Part shown: positions 29,411-36,433 of the stretch, in pieces
Position numbering within the stretch: the stretch's first letter is position 1
Layout of the letters: every line of letters begins with the position of its first letter
IMG/VR virus record: IMGVR_UViG_3300011114_000773
Coordinates: 1-64,000 of that record
Origin: a virus
Direction: 5' to 3' (one strand)
Length of the DNA: 64,000 bases
Translations under genes and position numbers: made by a program
Notes under the pieces: generated by a model
The model's database searches: none
The model's input: the letters and a program-made list of their open reading frames with translations, nothing else
What the model was told of the DNA's origin: nothing

Positions 29411-29796
29411 TGGTGGACGCGGCGAGGAGTCGCACCTCGCGTCAAAAAAATACTTTCCATAGGTCACTACACGCTTAGTTTATTTTTAATTACTTCAGTC
29501 CAAGTGACTCTTGATAAACAAACATCATTTGAACTATAGATTACTTTTCAGTCGGCCCTCTAATCACTGAGGCTGACCAATTCTGAATTTACGCTTATGG
29601 AATCTACAGACATCAATCCCTAAGCGGCTTGGCCATTAGACCAAGGCGGTTGCACGGCTGCTCACTACGCAGAAACTATTCCGTGTGTTTTTTGCTGTTT
29701 TAGCACTTACTTTTTTTCCGATTATTTAAGAGGCCATCGGAGTCCTCTGCGTGCGACTGAATAGTTCGTATTTTAGTTCGATACTACTACGCGCCC
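29411..29796 (-). ncRNA. ssrA: tmRNA
   Basis: 5' GGGCGCG pairs with CGCGUCC-ACCA 3' (G3:U70); T-arm GCGAGG-UGCGACU-CCUCGC; tag ORF 29636-29704 AKTAKNTRNSFCVVSSRATALV*; promoter TTGACA-N17-TAAACT (29812-29840). Confidence 0.92.
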
Positions 29797-29844
29797 ATTA
29801 CTAACTATTGGAGTTTACACCTAAGTCCGTCCTTTGTCAAGGGA

Positions 29845-31500
29845 TTATCCTTCGCATGATTTGCAGGTCATTATAGACCTAGATAACTCCTGTGCTGGAT
29901 TAGCAGACCGTTGATAATAAAATGTTTTAATTCCGAGTCGCCAGCCTTCAATCAGTAAGTCGCTTATCTCTTTAGGCTTGATGCTTGGAGGTATCATTAG
30001 ATTCAAAGACTGGCTTTGGTCAATAAACTTCTGCCTTGAAGCAGCCTGAATTACTATTTCTTTTTGGCTAATCTCGCCAAAGGTTTTAAACACGGCGCGT
30101 TCTTCTTCCGACAAGAAAGATAGATGTTGAACCGAGCCTCCGTGAAGTAGAATCGACTCCCAAACTGGTTCTGTATTTTGGTCTTTATCGACCAACAGTT
30201 TACGCAAAAATGGATTGGTATAAGTAAACTTACCTTTCGCTAAGTCCTTGACGAAATAATTAGAGTTCAACGGTTCTATCGAGGGGCTTACCTGTCCCAA
30301 GATAAAAGAAGAGGAGGTCGTGGGAGCGATAGCTATAAGCGTAGTATTTCGACGCCCTTTTCCGACTAGAAGACTCGGTTCTCCGAGAATGATTGCGAGT
30401 TCTTGAGATGCCTTTTCGGCTCTACTCTTTAGCTCCTGAAATACCTCTAAATTAAGCATTTTCGCGCTCATAGACTCGAAGGCAATCATTTTAGACTGAA
30501 GCAGAGAGTGCCATCCTAATACCCCCATACCCAAAGCTCGATGGTTCTTGGCGAAAAGATGCGCTGGACGCATGAATGGGACGCCAGCAGATTTCTTGAC
30601 GAATTCTTCGTTCACGGCGTCAAGAAAATAGACAAGGCATTCGACGGCATCAGTCTCCTTTATCTCGTCCCAATACAATAAATTTAGCGACGATAGCACG
30701 CAAGTAAACGACTCTTCACCGCTAGAGGGCAGGCAGATTTCGCTACATAAATTCGACGCCAAAATCTTCATCCCCAAATCTTTATATACCTGCGGAGAAT
30801 TATTATTAACAGTGTCGGTAAAGAAAAGATAGGGATAACCCGTTTCACATCGTTTTTGGATTATTTTGCTCCATATTTTTCGCTTATCAGGACATCCTTT
30901 GGTCATCTCCCGCATCCACTCATCAGTAATTGTTACTCCGATGCTGATGTTCTGAATCTTGTGCCCGTCAGAACGAATCTTAAGGAACTCTAATACGTCA
31001 GGATGCTCTACGGGAAGATATGCTGCGAAGCTGCCCCTGCGGGTGCTACCTTGGCTGACTGTTTCCGAAACAGAGTCAAAAATCTCCATGAAATGTACCG
31101 GGCCAGAAGATTCTCCACCAGCACTTATTTTCGACCCGCGTGGTCGGATTGCGCCAAAATCAGCGGATGTTCCTCCGCCCCCTTTTGACATCATTCCTAC
31201 CTCCGCTGCTTTCCCAAGGATAGACGGCAGGGTATCTTCTACCCTTGAGCCGAAGCATGACACAGGAAGACCATTTTTCGCTCCAAAATTAGTAAGCACC
31301 GGCGTCGCTAGAGAGTAGTAGCCCTTCTTGATATATCCATAGAACTTCTCTGCGAATCCGGGGATTCCTAGAATTTGTTCAGCGACATTAGAAATAGTCA
31401 AGTATCGGTCTTCTGGAGTGACACCGCTCTCTAGGTAGCCGCGACTTAAAAAGGTTCTTGAGTCTTTATTTAAAAATTGGAAATCTGGTCTAGTCTTCAT
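29845..31500 (-). CDS. nrdA: class I ribonucleotide reductase alpha subunit (no ATP cone)
   Basis: SCF, GGG, SNLCSEI, CVLSS, APT.SS, FYY, C-terminal CKSC. Confidence 0.95.
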   Translation of the reverse strand: MKTRPDFQFLNKDSRTFLSRGYLESGVTPEDRYLTISNVAEQILGIPGFAEKFYGYIKKGYYSLATPVLTNFGAKNGLPVSCFGSRVEDTLPSILGKAAEVGMMSKGGGGTSADFGAIRPRGSKISAGGESSGPVHFMEIFDSVSETVSQGSTRRGSFAAYLPVEHPDVLEFLKIRSDGHKIQNISIGVTITDEWMREMTKGCPDKRKIWSKIIQKRCETGYPYLFFTDTVNNNSPQVYKDLGMKILASNLCSEICLPSSGEESFTCVLSSLNLLYWDEIKETDAVECLVYFLDAVNEEFVKKSAGVPFMRPAHLFAKNHRALGMGVLGWHSLLQSKMIAFESMSAKMLNLEVFQELKSRAEKASQELAIILGEPSLLVGKGRRNTTLIAIAPTTSSSFILGQVSPSIEPLNSNYFVKDLAKGKFTYTNPFLRKLLVDKDQNTEPVWESILLHGGSVQHLSFLSEEERAVFKTFGEISQKEIVIQAASRQKFIDQSQSLNLMIPPSIKPKEISDLLIEGWRLGIKTFYYQRSANPAQELSRSIMTCKSCEG

Positions 31501-31513
31501 TTTTTATATCCGG

Positions 31514-32485
31514 TCAAAATAATTCATCGACATCAAAGCTCTTGCCTTTTTTAGAGTATTCCGTCGGCCTTGTCTTGAAAAAATCCGCCATGTTATTCCC
31601 GAGGAGTTCTTCGTAGAACCACTTAGTCTCCTTGACGACAGTCGGACTCACGATAAAGATTTCAGAATAGCCTATCTGGACAAGCGATTCATTGATTCGC
31701 CTTTGGACGAAAGCCTTTAAGACCTCTGGAGTAAGTCCATCTTGTTTGTAGTTAGACAAAATCCAGTCAATGATAACCGACTCCGACTCGAATGCCACGA
31801 CCGCCTCTTGTTTAACCCTAGCCTCTAGCTCCGCATCAAAAAGCTCTGGATATTCCTCACGAATCACGTTAACGAGTTTAATTCCCACTAGGGCATGTAT
31901 ATTCTCCTCGTTCCTAGTGTATTTAACCTGCTGGTCTGTATCTTTAAGAACGTTCTTATTACGGGCAAACCAGTTAATAACGTAAAATTGGCTGAAGAGC
32001 GATACGTTCTCTACGAAAAGGGTAAAGAGAATTAGCGCGTAAATAAACTGCTTTTTCTCATCTCGATATACGCCCTTAGAATATTTCTTCAAGTACTTAA
32101 CTCTATTGCCGATGCAGGGGAGTTTTAAGTTCTGCTCAAATACGTCATCTAGCCCGAGGACATGAAGAAGCCTTTCGTAAGCATTATTATGGATGACCTC
32201 CACGTTGGCCATGACATATCCCATATCAGCGATATAAGGATGAGGAAGGTTGTCTCCGAGTTTACCCCAAAATGTCTTTACAGCAACTTCTATTTGAGAA
32301 ATGGCAGAAAGCGTCCGAACGATGACCTCACGCTCCTCTTCGGTAAGCGTAACTAGAAAATCGTGCTTATCTGAATTAAAATTAAATTCTTTATCCGTCC
32401 AGAAGCCATTGTGCATAGCTTCTACGAATTCCGTAGTCCACGGATATTTATTAGGCCTTCGAGATGTCTGTTCTTCAAAAATCAT
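31514..32485 (-). CDS. nrdB: class I ribonucleotide reductase beta subunit
   Basis: FW, E.IH..AY, EN.SLFSQF, EE.IH, DFF..RPTEY. Confidence 0.95.
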   Translation of the reverse strand: MIFEEQTSRRPNKYPWTTEFVEAMHNGFWTDKEFNFNSDKHDFLVTLTEEEREVIVRTLSAISQIEVAVKTFWGKLGDNLPHPYIADMGYVMANVEVIHNNAYERLLHVLGLDDVFEQNLKLPCIGNRVKYLKKYSKGVYRDEKKQFIYALILFTLFVENVSLFSQFYVINWFARNKNVLKDTDQQVKYTRNEENIHALVGIKLVNVIREEYPELFDAELEARVKQEAVVAFESESVIIDWILSNYKQDGLTPEVLKAFVQRRINESLVQIGYSEIFIVSPTVVKETKWFYEELLGNNMADFFKTRPTEYSKKGKSFDVDELF

Positions 32486-32582
32486 ACTGTTCAAGTATCA
32501 TACAGCGGGTTGCACCCACGCGCAAGCGAAAACGCCCAAACAGAGAAAATACATTTTGCGCCATAAATTCCCGTGTAGGGAG

Positions 32583-33089
32583 CTATACGACGAGAAACGG
32601 TTCGGGAGAAGAGGATAAATCAAAAAATTTAACAATAGAAACTCCTGCTATAGTTTTTATGGTTCCTATCAGGTCGTTGCCTCTTTCATGGTTCGTGAGA
32701 AAGAAGTTCTTATAATATTCTTGAGCTTGGCTATTCCGGGCCGATTTACTGCAACTGCATCCGCTATTAACCAGTACCTCTAGGGCACAAAGACTATTAA
32801 ACGCTTCTTGCTGCTCTTTGGAGAACTTATCTTTTAAAGGGAAGTACCACCCAACAAAGGACTGCAACCCCTCAAATGATATTTTTAGCTCAGAGTCTAT
32901 CGCGTCGGCTACGGGTCCGCCGCCAAGGAGCACGACTAGACTCTCTGGAGAAGTAGGAACTGGTGCGCTGGAGGCTCCGACGTGCTCTGGAAGATTGACT
33001 TGAGGCGCAACGACTCGTCCCCCGATAACCGTATCGAGATTCCATGCCTCCGCGCCAGCGGCGAATCGTTTTTCTAATTCTGGACTCAT
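32583..33089 (-). CDS. hypothetical protein
   Basis: 168-aa ORF with GCSC. Confidence 0.55.
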   Translation of the reverse strand: MSPELEKRFAAGAEAWNLDTVIGGRVVAPQVNLPEHVGASSAPVPTSPESLVVLLGGGPVADAIDSELKISFEGLQSFVGWYFPLKDKFSKEQQEAFNSLCALEVLVNSGCSCSKSARNSQAQEYYKNFFLTNHERGNDLIGTIKTIAGVSIVKFFDLSSSPEPFLVV

Positions 33090-33457
33090 CCTTTTCTGTT
33101 AAGGATATACACGATTTTAACTAGCGAATAGTAAAAAACAACAGTCACCCAGACAGTAGCGAATACGATGACTAGTCTTCCGTCTCCGAATATTACACTT
33201 ATCGCAATTGAACAGAACACTGATAGGCACTCTCCACAGCTTGCTAGCGCTATCCAAAAGCTATTTGGCCACTTTATCCCCAGTCGCGTCCAGAAATTCA
33301 ACCTTGACTGTATTGGGTCATTAAAAAAGGCGCTCCCTTTCCTCGCCATCCGGCAAAACAGCTTGGAGTATGACTCGAATGCCTTCGTATCCGACACGAT
33401 ATATCCGATTGCCGACGACGCCAACGCTATAAAAATAACCAATTCTATAAAATTCAT
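33086..33457 (-). CDS. membrane protein (DUF1360-like CxxC)
   Basis: Hydrophobic helices, L.SC..CLS motif. Confidence 0.5.
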   Translation of the reverse strand: MNFIELVIFIALASSAIGYIVSDTKAFESYSKLFCRMARKGSAFFNDPIQSRLNFWTRLGIKWPNSFWIALASCGECLSVFCSIAISVIFGDGRLVIVFATVWVTVVFYYSLVKIVYILNRKG

Positions 33458-33602
33458 AATTATTAAAATGGACTTGGTGAGTATAAAAATGCTCTCCGAG
33501 CTATACAAGAATACGTTATGGCCAGCAGCGCTAGTACGAATACAATCATACTATTCGACGGGCCATCTAAACACGTATTCTACGACTCTGCCAAAAAAAA
33601 CT

Positions 33603-33631
33603 TTGACAAATCGCTAAACCCATGCTAGCAT
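33603..33631 (+). promoter_or_regulatory. sigma70-type promoter TTGACA-N17-TAGCAT
   Basis: Directly upstream of the ORF-free structured region. Confidence 0.7.
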
Positions 33632-33646
33632 AATTTCAGTAATATA

Positions 33647-33984
33647 TCTGGACATGGAAATAAGTGCCTCCCGCTTTCAGACGGGCGTTAACTAGCAGCT
33701 ATCACCTGAAAATGGTCGTGGCCCTTGGGCAAGGTCGAAGATACTACTGCGTGGTTAAAGCGTGTGATATGGGGAAACAAGCAACAGGTCACATAAGGGC
33801 ACATCAACCGTTGGTTGGGAATCCCTAGTCGAAAGACTAGGGGGATGGTCCGAAACTATTTTTAGGACGAGGCGGGTAACGTCACGTTGACAAAGGTAGA
33901 GCTAGACGCCGGGGCACGATAGACCCCTATGGTCCTGAATGGCTGAAGCTGCCCTATGCGCGTCTAACTCCGTCTATGTCCAGA
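33647..33984 (+). ncRNA. unclassified ~340-nt multi-helix structured RNA
   Basis: 12-bp closing stem UCUGGACAUGGA/UCUAUGUCCAGA, several nested helices, GAAA-capped hairpin, no ORF, own promoter. Confidence 0.7.
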
Positions 33985-34144
33985 ATAGTAATATTCAACA
34001 ACATAACACGGAAATGAAGACACCTCAAAAAAGTTTGGTTTGCAGGATGTTAAGAAAGCATGTCCTTTAAAACAGGCTTGCTTTCTTAATTTCCTAAAAA
34101 AGTATAGTCTGCGCTTCTTTTGTCTTTACATTATTATTCATTTT

Positions 34145-34753
34145 ATGATTCATCACGGTACTAACACCGAGGGTACTCTTATTAAGGTACAGGGGCTAGT
34201 TGGGTTGTGCGGCCTAGCTAGGTCAGGCAAGGACTTATTATGCTCGAAACTAATGGAGCGCGGGGAAGTTGTCCGAGTGGCTTTAGCTGACGAGCTTAAG
34301 AAAGACATGCGAGACTTCCTAACGCTTAAGTACGGTATCGACATTCTACACTGCTCTGCTGTGGAAAAGGAGGTCGTCCGCCCTCTTCTGGTAGCACATG
34401 GATGCGCTATGAGAGGATTAACTAATGGAGACTGCTGGATAAATAAAATCCACCAACAAGTTGTAGCTAACGCATTGCAGTCATTGGTTGTCGTCACCGA
34501 CATTCGGTTTCCAAACGAACTTGCGTGGCTTAGGAGATTGGGCGGCGCTCTAGTCCATATCCGAAGATATAATGTAGTGGAGGGTGAGCGGTGGTATCTT
34601 TCTCCTCCTAACGCAGACGAGGCAGAATACGACCCCCACTTAAGGGAGTCGGCTGATTTTAAACTTGAATGGCAAACATCAAACGATATAGGAGTAAAGT
34701 TAAATGCAGAAGTGGACCAAGTAGTCTCATACTTGAATGGACGACTTTACTAA
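34145..34753 (+). CDS. deoxynucleoside monophosphate kinase-like
   Basis: GL.G.ARSGKD, LAD.LK, R..L...G, W, TDIRFPNE. Confidence 0.85.
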   Translation: MIHHGTNTEGTLIKVQGLVGLCGLARSGKDLLCSKLMERGEVVRVALADELKKDMRDFLTLKYGIDILHCSAVEKEVVRPLLVAHGCAMRGLTNGDCWINKIHQQVVANALQSLVVVTDIRFPNELAWLRRLGGALVHIRRYNVVEGERWYLSPPNADEAEYDPHLRESADFKLEWQTSNDIGVKLNAEVDQVVSYLNGRLY

Positions 34754-35336
34754 AAAAAACGACAGTGAACTTATTTCTTCCGTCGTGAATAGTTCATGCT
34801 CGGACAGCTACCTTGAGCTTTGCCGAAGATACGAAAAGGTCTTTTACAAAGTATGCCAGAGGTATAGCTCTGTCTTTACCTCCGTAGGAATCCCAATAGC
34901 TGATATACTTGACGATAAAGATTCAATCATTTATTTTTGCGTAAAAAAGTTTGACCCGACTAGAGGCGCTAAATTTTCTACGTTTGTCGGAAACTACGCC
35001 AGATTTTTATGCTTGAAAAGTATTTTAAGTAAAAAGCATTGTTCTGACTTCAGCGATGATTCGATAAACGAACTTATTGAGAGTCGCCAGATTGCTCAAG
35101 AATATGAATCTTCCAATACTATTTTTGGAGCGTCTTTAGTCAACGAGGCTGTCGAAAAACTAGAGAATCCGATACATCGCAAAATTATTCACTTAAAGTA
35201 CTACGCACAAGCTGGCCCTGTTACATGGAAGACCATCGCTAATGATATGAAAATTAGCGTCCCGACCGTAATTGGAATACATGGTCGAGCTATTAGGAAT
35301 CTCAAAAGGAAAATAAAAACGCTAGAATTACAATGA
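34737..35336 (+). CDS. sigma70-family sigma factor-like protein
   Basis: KFDP.RGAKFSTF (region 2); W..IA..M.IS...V..IH.RAI..LK (region 4). Confidence 0.8.
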   Translation: MDDFTKKNDSELISSVVNSSCSDSYLELCRRYEKVFYKVCQRYSSVFTSVGIPIADILDDKDSIIYFCVKKFDPTRGAKFSTFVGNYARFLCLKSILSKKHCSDFSDDSINELIESRQIAQEYESSNTIFGASLVNEAVEKLENPIHRKIIHLKYYAQAGPVTWKTIANDMKISVPTVIGIHGRAIRNLKRKIKTLELQ

Positions 35337-36433
35337 AAAACTTCTCTCTTCATCTACCAATAAACTCTACCAGTCTAGGTCAGACATCGACCTTAATTCT
35401 GCGGACACTCATCGAGAACCCGGAGTTACTAGCGAAAGTAGATGGCTTATTTAATATCGGACATGACTTAGACTTGTCCAGTCAGGACCAGTCTTCTGTG
35501 AAGTCGTTTAGCCCAGCCGTACAGCAATTGATGAATGACAGTTTATCTAAGTATAGCAGGAGCACCCCATGCTTCAAGTTGTGGCACTTGTTAGGTTCTC
35601 TTGAATCGTATAGCGCAAATCCGACACTTCTATCATTTTACGAGTTAGACGAGCCGACAAGCGCAGAGCTTACTATTGCTGGAAGTCAGAACACGTTATT
35701 TACGTCTCGATACACCTGCGATGTATTCGCTAGTCGAGGAGTCCAGACTAAATATGTTCCGCTCGCTTTTGACGACTTCAATTTCAAAGTCAAAAATACA
35801 AGGAGAATTCCTGATAGGATTACTTTTAACGTCGTAGGCAAATATGAGAAAAGGAAATCTCACGAAAAAGTAATCAAATCTTGGATTAAGAAGTTCGGAA
35901 ATGACCGTCGTTATTTCTTGCAGGCCGCTGTCTATAATCCTTTCTTCCCGAACCCGGCAGAGACAAATAACAGAGTTACGAATGAACTATTGGGCGGACG
36001 GTCTGTATTTAATGTGAATTTCTTCGGGCACATGCTACAGAACTCTCTATATAATGACTTTCTTAACTCGTCGGATATCGTGCTTGGACTGAGTGGAGGA
36101 GAAGGCTGGGGACTTCCTGAGTTCCAGTCTGTAGCGATGGGAAAACACGCGGTTATTTTGGACGCTCATGGATATAAAGGCTGGGCCAATGCCGAAAACT
36201 CGGTTCTTGTAAAGCCAAACGGTAAAACCCCAGCATACGACGGATTATTCTTCCGTCAGGGAGCGCCGTTTAATCAGGGCAGTATTTTTACATTCGATGA
36301 AGACGCTTTTATCTACGGATGCGAACAAGCTATAGAAAGAGTCAAGAGCAGCCCAGTTAACGCTTCTGGAATTAAATTGCAGCAAGAGTTCTCAAGACAA
36401 AAAATGGTAAATCAAATTATAGAAGCACTATGA
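35333..36433 (+). CDS. GT-B glycosyltransferase (GT4-like)
   Basis: GKYEKRK, S.GEGWGLPEF. Confidence 0.85.
   Translation: MKNFSLHLPINSTSLGQTSTLILRTLIENPELLAKVDGLFNIGHDLDLSSQDQSSVKSFSPAVQQLMNDSLSKYSRSTPCFKLWHLLGSLESYSANPTLLSFYELDEPTSAELTIAGSQNTLFTSRYTCDVFASRGVQTKYVPLAFDDFNFKVKNTRRIPDRITFNVVGKYEKRKSHEKVIKSWIKKFGNDRRYFLQAAVYNPFFPNPAETNNRVTNELLGGRSVFNVNFFGHMLQNSLYNDFLNSSDIVLGLSGGEGWGLPEFQSVAMGKHAVILDAHGYKGWANAENSVLVKPNGKTPAYDGLFFRQGAPFNQGSIFTFDEDAFIYGCEQAIERVKSSPVNASGIKLQQEFSRQKMVNQIIEAL

Follow-up and report, generated by a model that had tools for sequence, protein, structure and literature searches.

The window analyzed here is a 64-kb stretch of DNA (64,000 nucleotides) that forms the first part of the 108,297-bp IMG/VR virus record IMGVR_UViG_3300011114_000773, which is about 60% complete according to CheckV and comes from an uncultured aquatic phage. 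Around a gap at 33509-34144, a leftward arm with the genes for both subunits of ribonucleotide reductase and two unknown ORFs diverges from a rightward arm that opens with a dNMP kinase gene and continues with genes for a sigma-70-like factor, a glycosyltransferase-like protein, and an FkbM-type methyltransferase (Table 1). A preliminary description of the locus, made from the DNA alone, placed in this gap an orphan, highly structured RNA of about 340 nt with its own promoter, within an ORF-free segment richer in GC than its surroundings. Both properties of the segment hold: with ORFs of at least 70 aa masked, only one ORF-free stretch in the 108-kb record, the one that contains a tmRNA gene, is larger than the gap, and the GC content is 0.50-0.51 within 33700-33999 versus 0.36-0.43 in the flanks. 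With the revised starts of both flanking genes (see below), the non-coding interval spans about 640-690 nt. No ORF appears in the gap under genetic code 4 or with TAG read as Gln, which removes recoded ORFs from consideration, and none of its short ORFs is recorded as a called gene in the protein collection; a small peptide gene was rejected because the frame is not conserved in L056, a distant relative described below. The cumulative GC skew of the record turns at the gene-orientation switch that holds the gap.

Table 1. Genes and RNA features at the strand switch (coordinates are those of the window)
Feature	Position	Strand or arm	Remarks
Ribonucleotide reductase, large subunit	29845-31500	leftward arm	
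Ribonucleotide reductase, small subunit	31514-32494	leftward arm	
Two unknown ORFs	32583-33089 and 33086-33508	leftward arm	
o140-family small CxxC hydrophobic protein	33086..33457	-	divergent; adjoins the RNA in the window, L056, and L025
Sigma-70-type promoter	33603..33631	+	TTGACA 33603-08, 17-nt spacer, TAGCAT 33626-31; 10/12 matches
8-nt direct repeat AGTAATAT	33638..33645 and 33987-33994	+	immediately outside both P1 strands; p ~0.004-0.02
Closing stem P1	33647-33658/33973-33984	+	12/12 pairs, one G-U
Conserved block UGCCUCC, hairpin Ha, conserved block GGCGUUAAC	33665..33692	+	Ha 33670-73/33682-85
Three-way junction	33695..33750	+	helix 33695-98/33747-50 around Hb and Hc
Hairpin Hb	33699-706/33714-21	+	loop with CUGAAA; partly kept in the model alignment
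Hairpin Hc	33723-26/33731-34	+	partly kept in the model alignment
Hairpin Hd	33762..33794	+	7 bp, 19-nt loop (GGGG..AAC..AAC..GG)
3' domain	33823..33899	+	GNRA hairpin He 33823-42, GGAUGGU 33843-49, Hf 33848-51/33865-68, Hg 33877-81/33885-89, AGGUAG 33894-99
Long hairpin Hh	33899-909/33960-70	+	within 33899..33970; inner helix 33912-16/33950-54
A/C-rich, G-poor, poorly paired spacer	33985..34047	+	63 nt, separates the RNA body from the trailing hairpin
Trailing hairpin	34039..34100	+	perfect 11 bp 34050-60/34079-89, extendable to 22-nt arms, then UUUCCU
dNMP kinase	34145..34753	+	first gene 3' of the gap; PHROG and Pfam dNMP kinase matches
Sigma-70-like factor	34737-35336	rightward arm	
Glycosyltransferase-like protein	35333-36433	rightward arm	
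FkbM-type methyltransferase		rightward arm	after the glycosyltransferase-like gene

The start of the dNMP kinase gene is fixed at the ATG at 34145 by four close relatives (P0002-P0005; 201 aa, 75-79% identical, encoded on contigs of 16-186 kb), all of which begin with MIHHGTN. The stretch upstream of this ATG is AU-rich and shows no Shine-Dalgarno sequence. On the other side of the gap, the ORF annotated at 33086-33508 belongs to a family of small, apparently membrane-like proteins that we denoted o140; its true start probably lies near 33457, which would make the annotation about 17 codons too long. Neither o140 nor the other neighbor, o168, has a recognizable RNA-binding domain, and neither gene points to a protein partner for the RNA.

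A sigma-70-type promoter of the form TTGACA-N17-TAGCAT lies in the gap exactly where the preliminary description had put it, and it is further equipped with a TG-extended -10 element (TG at 33623-24) and an upstream A-tract; from its position, transcription would start near 33638-33639. The record contains about nine perfect TTGACA sites with a promoter-like element 17 nt away, mostly intergenic, and these sites suggest a set of early promoters used by the host polymerase. One of them, on the minus strand at 29840 (TTGACA-17-TAAACT), lies directly upstream of the tmRNA gene, so the promoter at 33603 is of the same class as one used for a proven RNA gene. This one-piece tmRNA gene (29411-29796, minus strand) matches the Rfam model RF00023 with 103.6 bits and went unreported by ARAGORN; its tag frame would read approximately AKTAKKHTE, which lacks the usual hydrophobic ending of the ..LAA type. 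The RNA in the gap resembles its neighbor about 4 kb away in that both would be stable-RNA genes in a large ORF-free gap behind a TTGACA-17-TAnnnT promoter, but it fails to match RF00023 and lacks both a tRNA-like end and a tag reading frame. Examples of the perfect sites are those at 584(-), 2035(-), 10001(-), 12699(-), 16044(-), 29840(-), 33603(+), and 48876(+), most of them in short intergenic gaps of the leftward arm; record-wide, promoter-like sites with at least 10 of 12 matches number 40 compared to about 23 in shuffled sequences.

The claim of an orphan RNA with its own promoter thus divides into two parts. The promoter is credible, but the word orphan is doubtful: the stretch between the RNA and the first ORF showed no promoter that would serve the dNMP kinase operon separately, and for the same reason the RNA probably forms the 5' head of the rightward early transcript.

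On the plus strand, the segment folds with a minimum free energy (MFE) of -123.6 kcal/mol (z -3.5), a value that none of 100 shuffled sequences attained; the corresponding figures for the minus strand are -109.2 and z -2.9 relative to shuffles. After correction for GC content, the plus strand ranks third among 636 genome windows (z -2.5), level with the window that covers the tmRNA, whereas the minus strand is unremarkable (z only -0.7), so the preference for the plus strand in the preliminary description was right. A chance fold in decaying non-coding DNA or in a pseudogene remnant gains a little from these numbers, given that a z-score of about -3.5 is not decisive by itself and that other genome windows reach similar GC-corrected stability; however, only one ORF-free stretch in this densely coding genome is larger than the segment, and the comparative evidence presented below makes this explanation the least probable of those considered here, very close to negligible.

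Most helices described earlier were recovered. The closing stem P1 is complete, and the GNRA-capped hairpin, the long helix of Hh (10 of 11 pairs), the inner GGGCA/UGCCC helix, and the 11-bp hairpin downstream are all present as described. Two further pairings fared differently. The strands of GCCUC/GAGGC (33666-70/33869-73) are indeed complementary, but this helix is absent from the MFE fold and has no counterpart in L056; GUGGCCCUUG/UAAGGGCAC (33718-27/33794-802) is likewise complementary and likewise absent from the MFE fold, and it clashes with a three-way junction that L056 supports. The best reading of the body is a structured non-coding RNA of about 340 nt, encoded on the plus strand at approximately 33639-33990. 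Beyond it come the unpaired spacer and the trailing hairpin, which has a poor U-tract and was not called by the terminator scan; it is a putative weak terminator, processing site, or protector of the 3' end. An imperfect 17-nt direct repeat, AAAAAAGT.T.GT.TGC, flanks this hairpin (34027-34043 and 34096-34112).

The RNA is uncatalogued and belongs to no Rfam family. None of the 4227 models of Rfam 15, which include tmRNA, RNase P, SRP, 6S, group I and group II introns, GOLLD, ROOL, HEARO, raiA, riboswitches, and self-cleaving ribozymes, matches it at gathering thresholds, the tmRNA gene being the only match in the window, and a permissive search (E up to 10) returned nothing over 33640-33990 save a 12-bit match to the GAAA hairpin. 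The preliminary description likewise recognized no signatures of tmRNA, RNase P, SRP, 6S, or group I/II introns. ARAGORN reported no tRNA genes in the 64-kb window and nothing for the gap RNA; with no match to the RF00023 model there either, a tmRNA identity was discarded. Several other candidates were also set aside: a group I intron, given that the flanking genes are intact and divergent and that no intron model matches at E up to 10; RNase P, given that neither P4 nor CR-I motifs are seen by eye; and a CsrA-type sponge, given that GGA is not enriched by count.

Searches for relatives by sequence were similarly blank. No homolog of the RNA was found by nhmmer and blastn among 181 loci. In viral contigs, the exact pattern of the hairpin retrieved one unrelated terminator, and the patterns TGCCTCC..GGCGTNNACNAGC and GGCGTWRACWAGC..CTGAAA retrieved only random GC-rich or coding matches, as did TGCCTCC..GGCGTNNACNAGC with CTGAAA in genome contigs (all by regular expression and with the covariance model R1 described below). 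Among viral and genome contigs, no close relative emerged from scans with o140, with an alignment of the close dNMP kinase relatives, or with an o140-family alignment. Neither the window nor its two syntenic relatives, L056 and L025, shows DNA similarity to cultured phages, and the dNMP kinase and glycosyltransferase-like proteins yielded only matches near or below 30% identity among cultured phages.

Synteny was more productive. The arrangement of leftward reductases and a rightward dNMP kinase, sigma-like factor, and glycosyltransferase-like gene recurs in many contigs of uncultured aquatic phages, but an o140-family ORF beside the switch was found in only two such syntenic contigs, L056 (Ga0070749_10000015) and L025 (Ga0129345_1000247), whose dNMP kinases are 38% and 45% identical to that of the window, respectively. 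The o140-family ORFs of the three phages (window 33086-33508, L056:1723-2082, and L025:3073-3417, all on the minus strand) share 32-35% identity, and a search of viral contigs found no further relatives. At the exact same strand switch, both contigs have an ORF-free gap of 500-570 nt that begins with a TTGAC -35 box behind a T-tract (TTGACA in L056, whose -10 element is imperfect), folds well (z -3.5 in L056 and -4.5 in L025), and contains a long hairpin before the first ORF; neither gap RNA matches an Rfam family.

We built a covariance model, R1, from window positions 33662-33802 alone, comprising Ha, the three-way junction (closing helix, Hb, and Hc), and Hd. In 583 kb of loci, its best match is L056:2259-2407, on the right strand of the syntenic gap (21.9 bits, E 0.013), followed by a match with E 6.4. 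Within the L056 locus, the E-value is 2e-4 and the runner-up scores 4.6 bits. A further 1.03 Mb together with 20 loci selected by pattern yielded nothing better than E 1.8, leaving L056 as the single match in 1.6 Mb. By comparison, R3, a sequence-only model of the same segment, gives the L056 site 2.2 bits (E 1.6), so about 20 bits of the similarity come from base pairing, and the blank results of nhmmer and blastn are explained by the same fact.

The two RNAs differ in the way expected of a conserved fold. In the R1 alignment, 92% of the cells in helices can pair, and 9 of 26 pairs are changed on both sides compared to 0-1 when partners are slid by 1-3 columns, an alignment that is fitted to R1 and involves two sequences, one of them the only demonstrable homolog. 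Unaided, RNAalifold recovered Ha, the junction helix, part of Hb, and Hd, with eight compensatory pairs. The UGCCUCC and GGCGUUAAC blocks are identical or nearly so in L056, and two pairs of the intervening Ha are changed on both sides; in the closing helix of the junction, two pairs are compensatory, and the enclosed stretch is exactly 48 nt long in each phage; all seven pairs of Hd are kept, two of them changed on both sides, and the GGG, AAC, and AAC motifs of its loop are common to both. The comparison thus supports a fold of the 5' half (approximately 33662-33802) that compensatory changes have preserved even in the very distant L056. The survival of this fold in two phage lineages that have lost almost all sequence similarity implies strong selection on the 5' half. 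Helices kept by compensatory changes, the mark of a structured RNA family, are found in the 5' domain only and in two sequences.

Two explanations that do without a functional RNA are weakened by these observations. For the chance fold discussed above, it would have to be accidental that the single best match in 1.6 Mb falls in the syntenic gap of a distant phage, on the right strand, with compensatory changes in its pairs. The other invokes an element that works as DNA, for instance a replication origin or a divergent control region. The position at the gene-orientation switch, where the cumulative GC skew turns, and the AT-rich tracts on both sides would suit such an element, but there are no iterons or tandem repeats, the stability is strongly strand-asymmetric and includes G-U pairs, a promoter reads into the segment, and the 20 or so bits shared with L056 reside in base pairing. 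We therefore regard a DNA-level element as very unlikely.

For the 3' half and P1, the search for covarying homologs gave no support, in contrast to the 5' half with its eight to nine pairs changed on both sides. R2, a model of the L056 3' domain, does not find the 3' domain of the window. By eye, the two phages have the same order of elements in this part, namely, a GNRA-capped hairpin, GGAUGGU, two consecutive hairpins, AGGUAG, and another hairpin, the last being a short one in L056 at the position that corresponds to Hh; common 6- to 7-mers are expected by chance between two stretches of 150 nt, so this order is a lead only, and the homology of the 3' domains is a candidate. A candidate long-range pairing, UGCCU(C)/(G)AGGUA, can form in the window, in L056, and, with 4 bp, in L025; it shows no covariation. 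P1 has no counterpart in L056, the RNA of which seems to begin at the UGCCUCC block.

The 8-nt repeat AGTAATAT, one copy of which sits just outside each strand of P1, may serve as a processing signal, or it may be the scar of an insertion, namely, a target-site duplication. Under the latter interpretation, the segment would be a small non-autonomous mobile insertion, with P1 as its terminal inverted repeats and perhaps a functional RNA as its cargo. This explanation would account for the repeat and for the apparent turnover of content at this spot, where L025 may have a different RNA, and the core of the L056 RNA is flanked on both sides by AAAGAU(U)C when inspected by eye. Nevertheless, the element is present in a single copy in the record, no copies were found in the viral, metagenome-derived, or genome loci searched, the L056 copy has no inverted termini, and the RNA occupies one and the same syntenic position in two phages that diverged deeply, which is more readily explained by vertical descent than by repeated insertion. 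On balance, we consider an insertion improbable.

Together, these features can be assembled into a mechanism, which we put forward tentatively as our preferred reading, namely, a discrete early RNA that is released from the transcript and acts in trans on a protein. The host RNA polymerase with sigma-70 would read the RNA right after infection from the near-consensus promoter, one of the best that the phage has, and the RNA is probably the first product that the phage makes from it. The early transcript would carry the RNA followed by dNMP kinase, the sigma-like factor, the glycosyltransferase-like protein, and the methyltransferase. The RNA itself would fold into a closed multi-helix body, its 5' and 3' ends joined by the 12-bp stem, with a conserved 5' domain made up of Ha, the three-way junction, and Hd with its large, conserved loop, and a 3' domain consisting of four to five hairpins with conserved purine-rich linkers between them. 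At or before 34039-34100, the body would be separated from the mRNA by weak termination or by cleavage with a double-strand-specific RNase, whereupon the freed, end-protected RNA could accumulate early in infection and, as a decoy or scaffold, bind a protein of the host or the phage. Sensing a metabolite on behalf of one particular gene would not be its role.

Several features are consistent with a discrete body: P1 begins about 8 nt after the predicted transcription start and encloses all of the fold, 63 unpaired nucleotides of spacer follow, and a long hairpin stands between the RNA and the first ORF in the window, L056, and L025. Release as a free RNA is conjecture, since the U-tract of the trailing hairpin is poor and the terminator scan was silent.

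That no promoter was found for the genes downstream is equally compatible with a leader acting in cis. Such a leader of the early rightward operon would act on the stability of the mRNA, on translation of its first gene, or on read-through of the hairpin, in the manner of terminator-based riboswitches, attenuators, or processive antitermination RNAs such as the put RNAs of phage HK022. In all three phages, the RNA is co-oriented with the operon and directly heads it, and a hairpin separates the RNA from the first ORF; no separate promoter lies between the two. One hexamer, AUGUCC, is found twice, at 33976-81 in the 3' strand of P1 and at 34062-67 in the upper 5' arm of the hairpin, such that the 5' strand of P1 could pair with either copy, an alternative pairing that appears in the window only. 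Against this reading stand the 63 unpaired nucleotides between fold and hairpin and the absence of good U-tracts in the hairpins; the long unpaired spacer and the poor U-tract make a coupled expression platform, in particular, less plausible. Furthermore, the first downstream gene varies. In L056, two tandem sulfotransferase-domain genes (L056:2588-3999) lie between the RNA and dNMP kinase, and because the first gene is dNMP kinase in the window but a sulfotransferase in L056, a gene-specific riboswitch is disfavored. At 240-340 nt, the RNA would also be larger than put RNAs and typical riboswitch aptamers. All told, a cis-acting leader is nearly as likely as the preferred reading.

Comparison with known systems is instructive for both readings. 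HK022 put RNAs consist of two stem-loops and are about 70 nt long. The gap RNA is like these and other antitermination leaders in being a folded RNA transcribed first from an early phage promoter, before hairpins and early genes; it differs in having at least 10 helices, and the likeness serves as a lead. With terminator-type riboswitch leaders such as the T-box and cobalamin families, it shares a long 5' leader, a P1-like closing stem, and a hairpin before the first gene, but neither these nor any other Rfam riboswitch model matches it even at E 10, and its downstream gene is not conserved. The early transcripts of coliphage T7 are made by the host polymerase, are processed by RNase III, and contain long hairpins between their functional units. 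One long early transcript with hairpins between units would be common to T7 and the locus described here, except that T7 has mRNAs as its units, whereas the transcript of this locus would open with a non-coding RNA.

The preferred reading of a released RNA acting in trans brings to mind a different group. ROOL and GOLLD are about 580 and 800 nt long, respectively, so the gap RNA, with its 340 nt or so, is smaller than either. Like them, it is a large multi-helix phage-borne RNA without an ORF and without a known job, located in a long, GC-richer intergenic region, but it matches neither Rfam model, it heads an early operon, and its 64-kb surroundings have no tRNA genes. Both GOLLD and ROOL belong to the large "ornate" non-coding RNAs, often found in phages and prophages, that have been studied by cryo-EM (PMC12286853).

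A free form of the gap RNA would be a candidate decoy or scaffold RNA for taking over the host; as a leader, the RNA would represent a new type of operon-level control. Large structured RNAs of unknown function are rare, and past examples proved to be ribozymes, riboswitches, or RNA-only assemblies. With two demonstrable members and an uncultured host, the value of this one is limited for now.

The corresponding slot in other phages of the group is occupied in different ways. At L025:3560-3990, a TTGACG-17-TATATT promoter is followed by the well-folding ORF-free stretch already mentioned, about 375 nt long and with a 23-bp hairpin at its end. R1 does not match this RNA, which is either a stripped-down version, without the junction and Hd, or a different RNA; blocks colinear with the window can be marked in it, by patterns written after inspection of L025, and we do not claim homology on that ground. 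In the more distant syntenic phages L046, L051, L067, L126, and L146, the slot between the early promoter and dNMP kinase holds no RNA but a conserved ORF of about 100 aa (CSDW..V..AE..EAC). Gaps of 300-450 nt upstream of dNMP kinase in many other loci were considered as RNA slots and rejected, as each has a small conserved ORF inside. Looking across these phages, one could imagine that the slot at the head of the early operon is filled by interchangeable structured RNAs, with the window and L056 sharing one family, L025 having a stripped-down or different RNA, and more distant relatives a small protein gene; the RNAs would serve as early, abundant protein-binding cassettes for host takeover or anti-defense. 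This broader scenario is speculative, and we think it unlikely; if true, the RNAs in the slot would parallel, at the RNA level, the variable accessory proteins that phages make early. In L025, a gene for an Hsp20 protein is located just beyond the two leftward ORFs.
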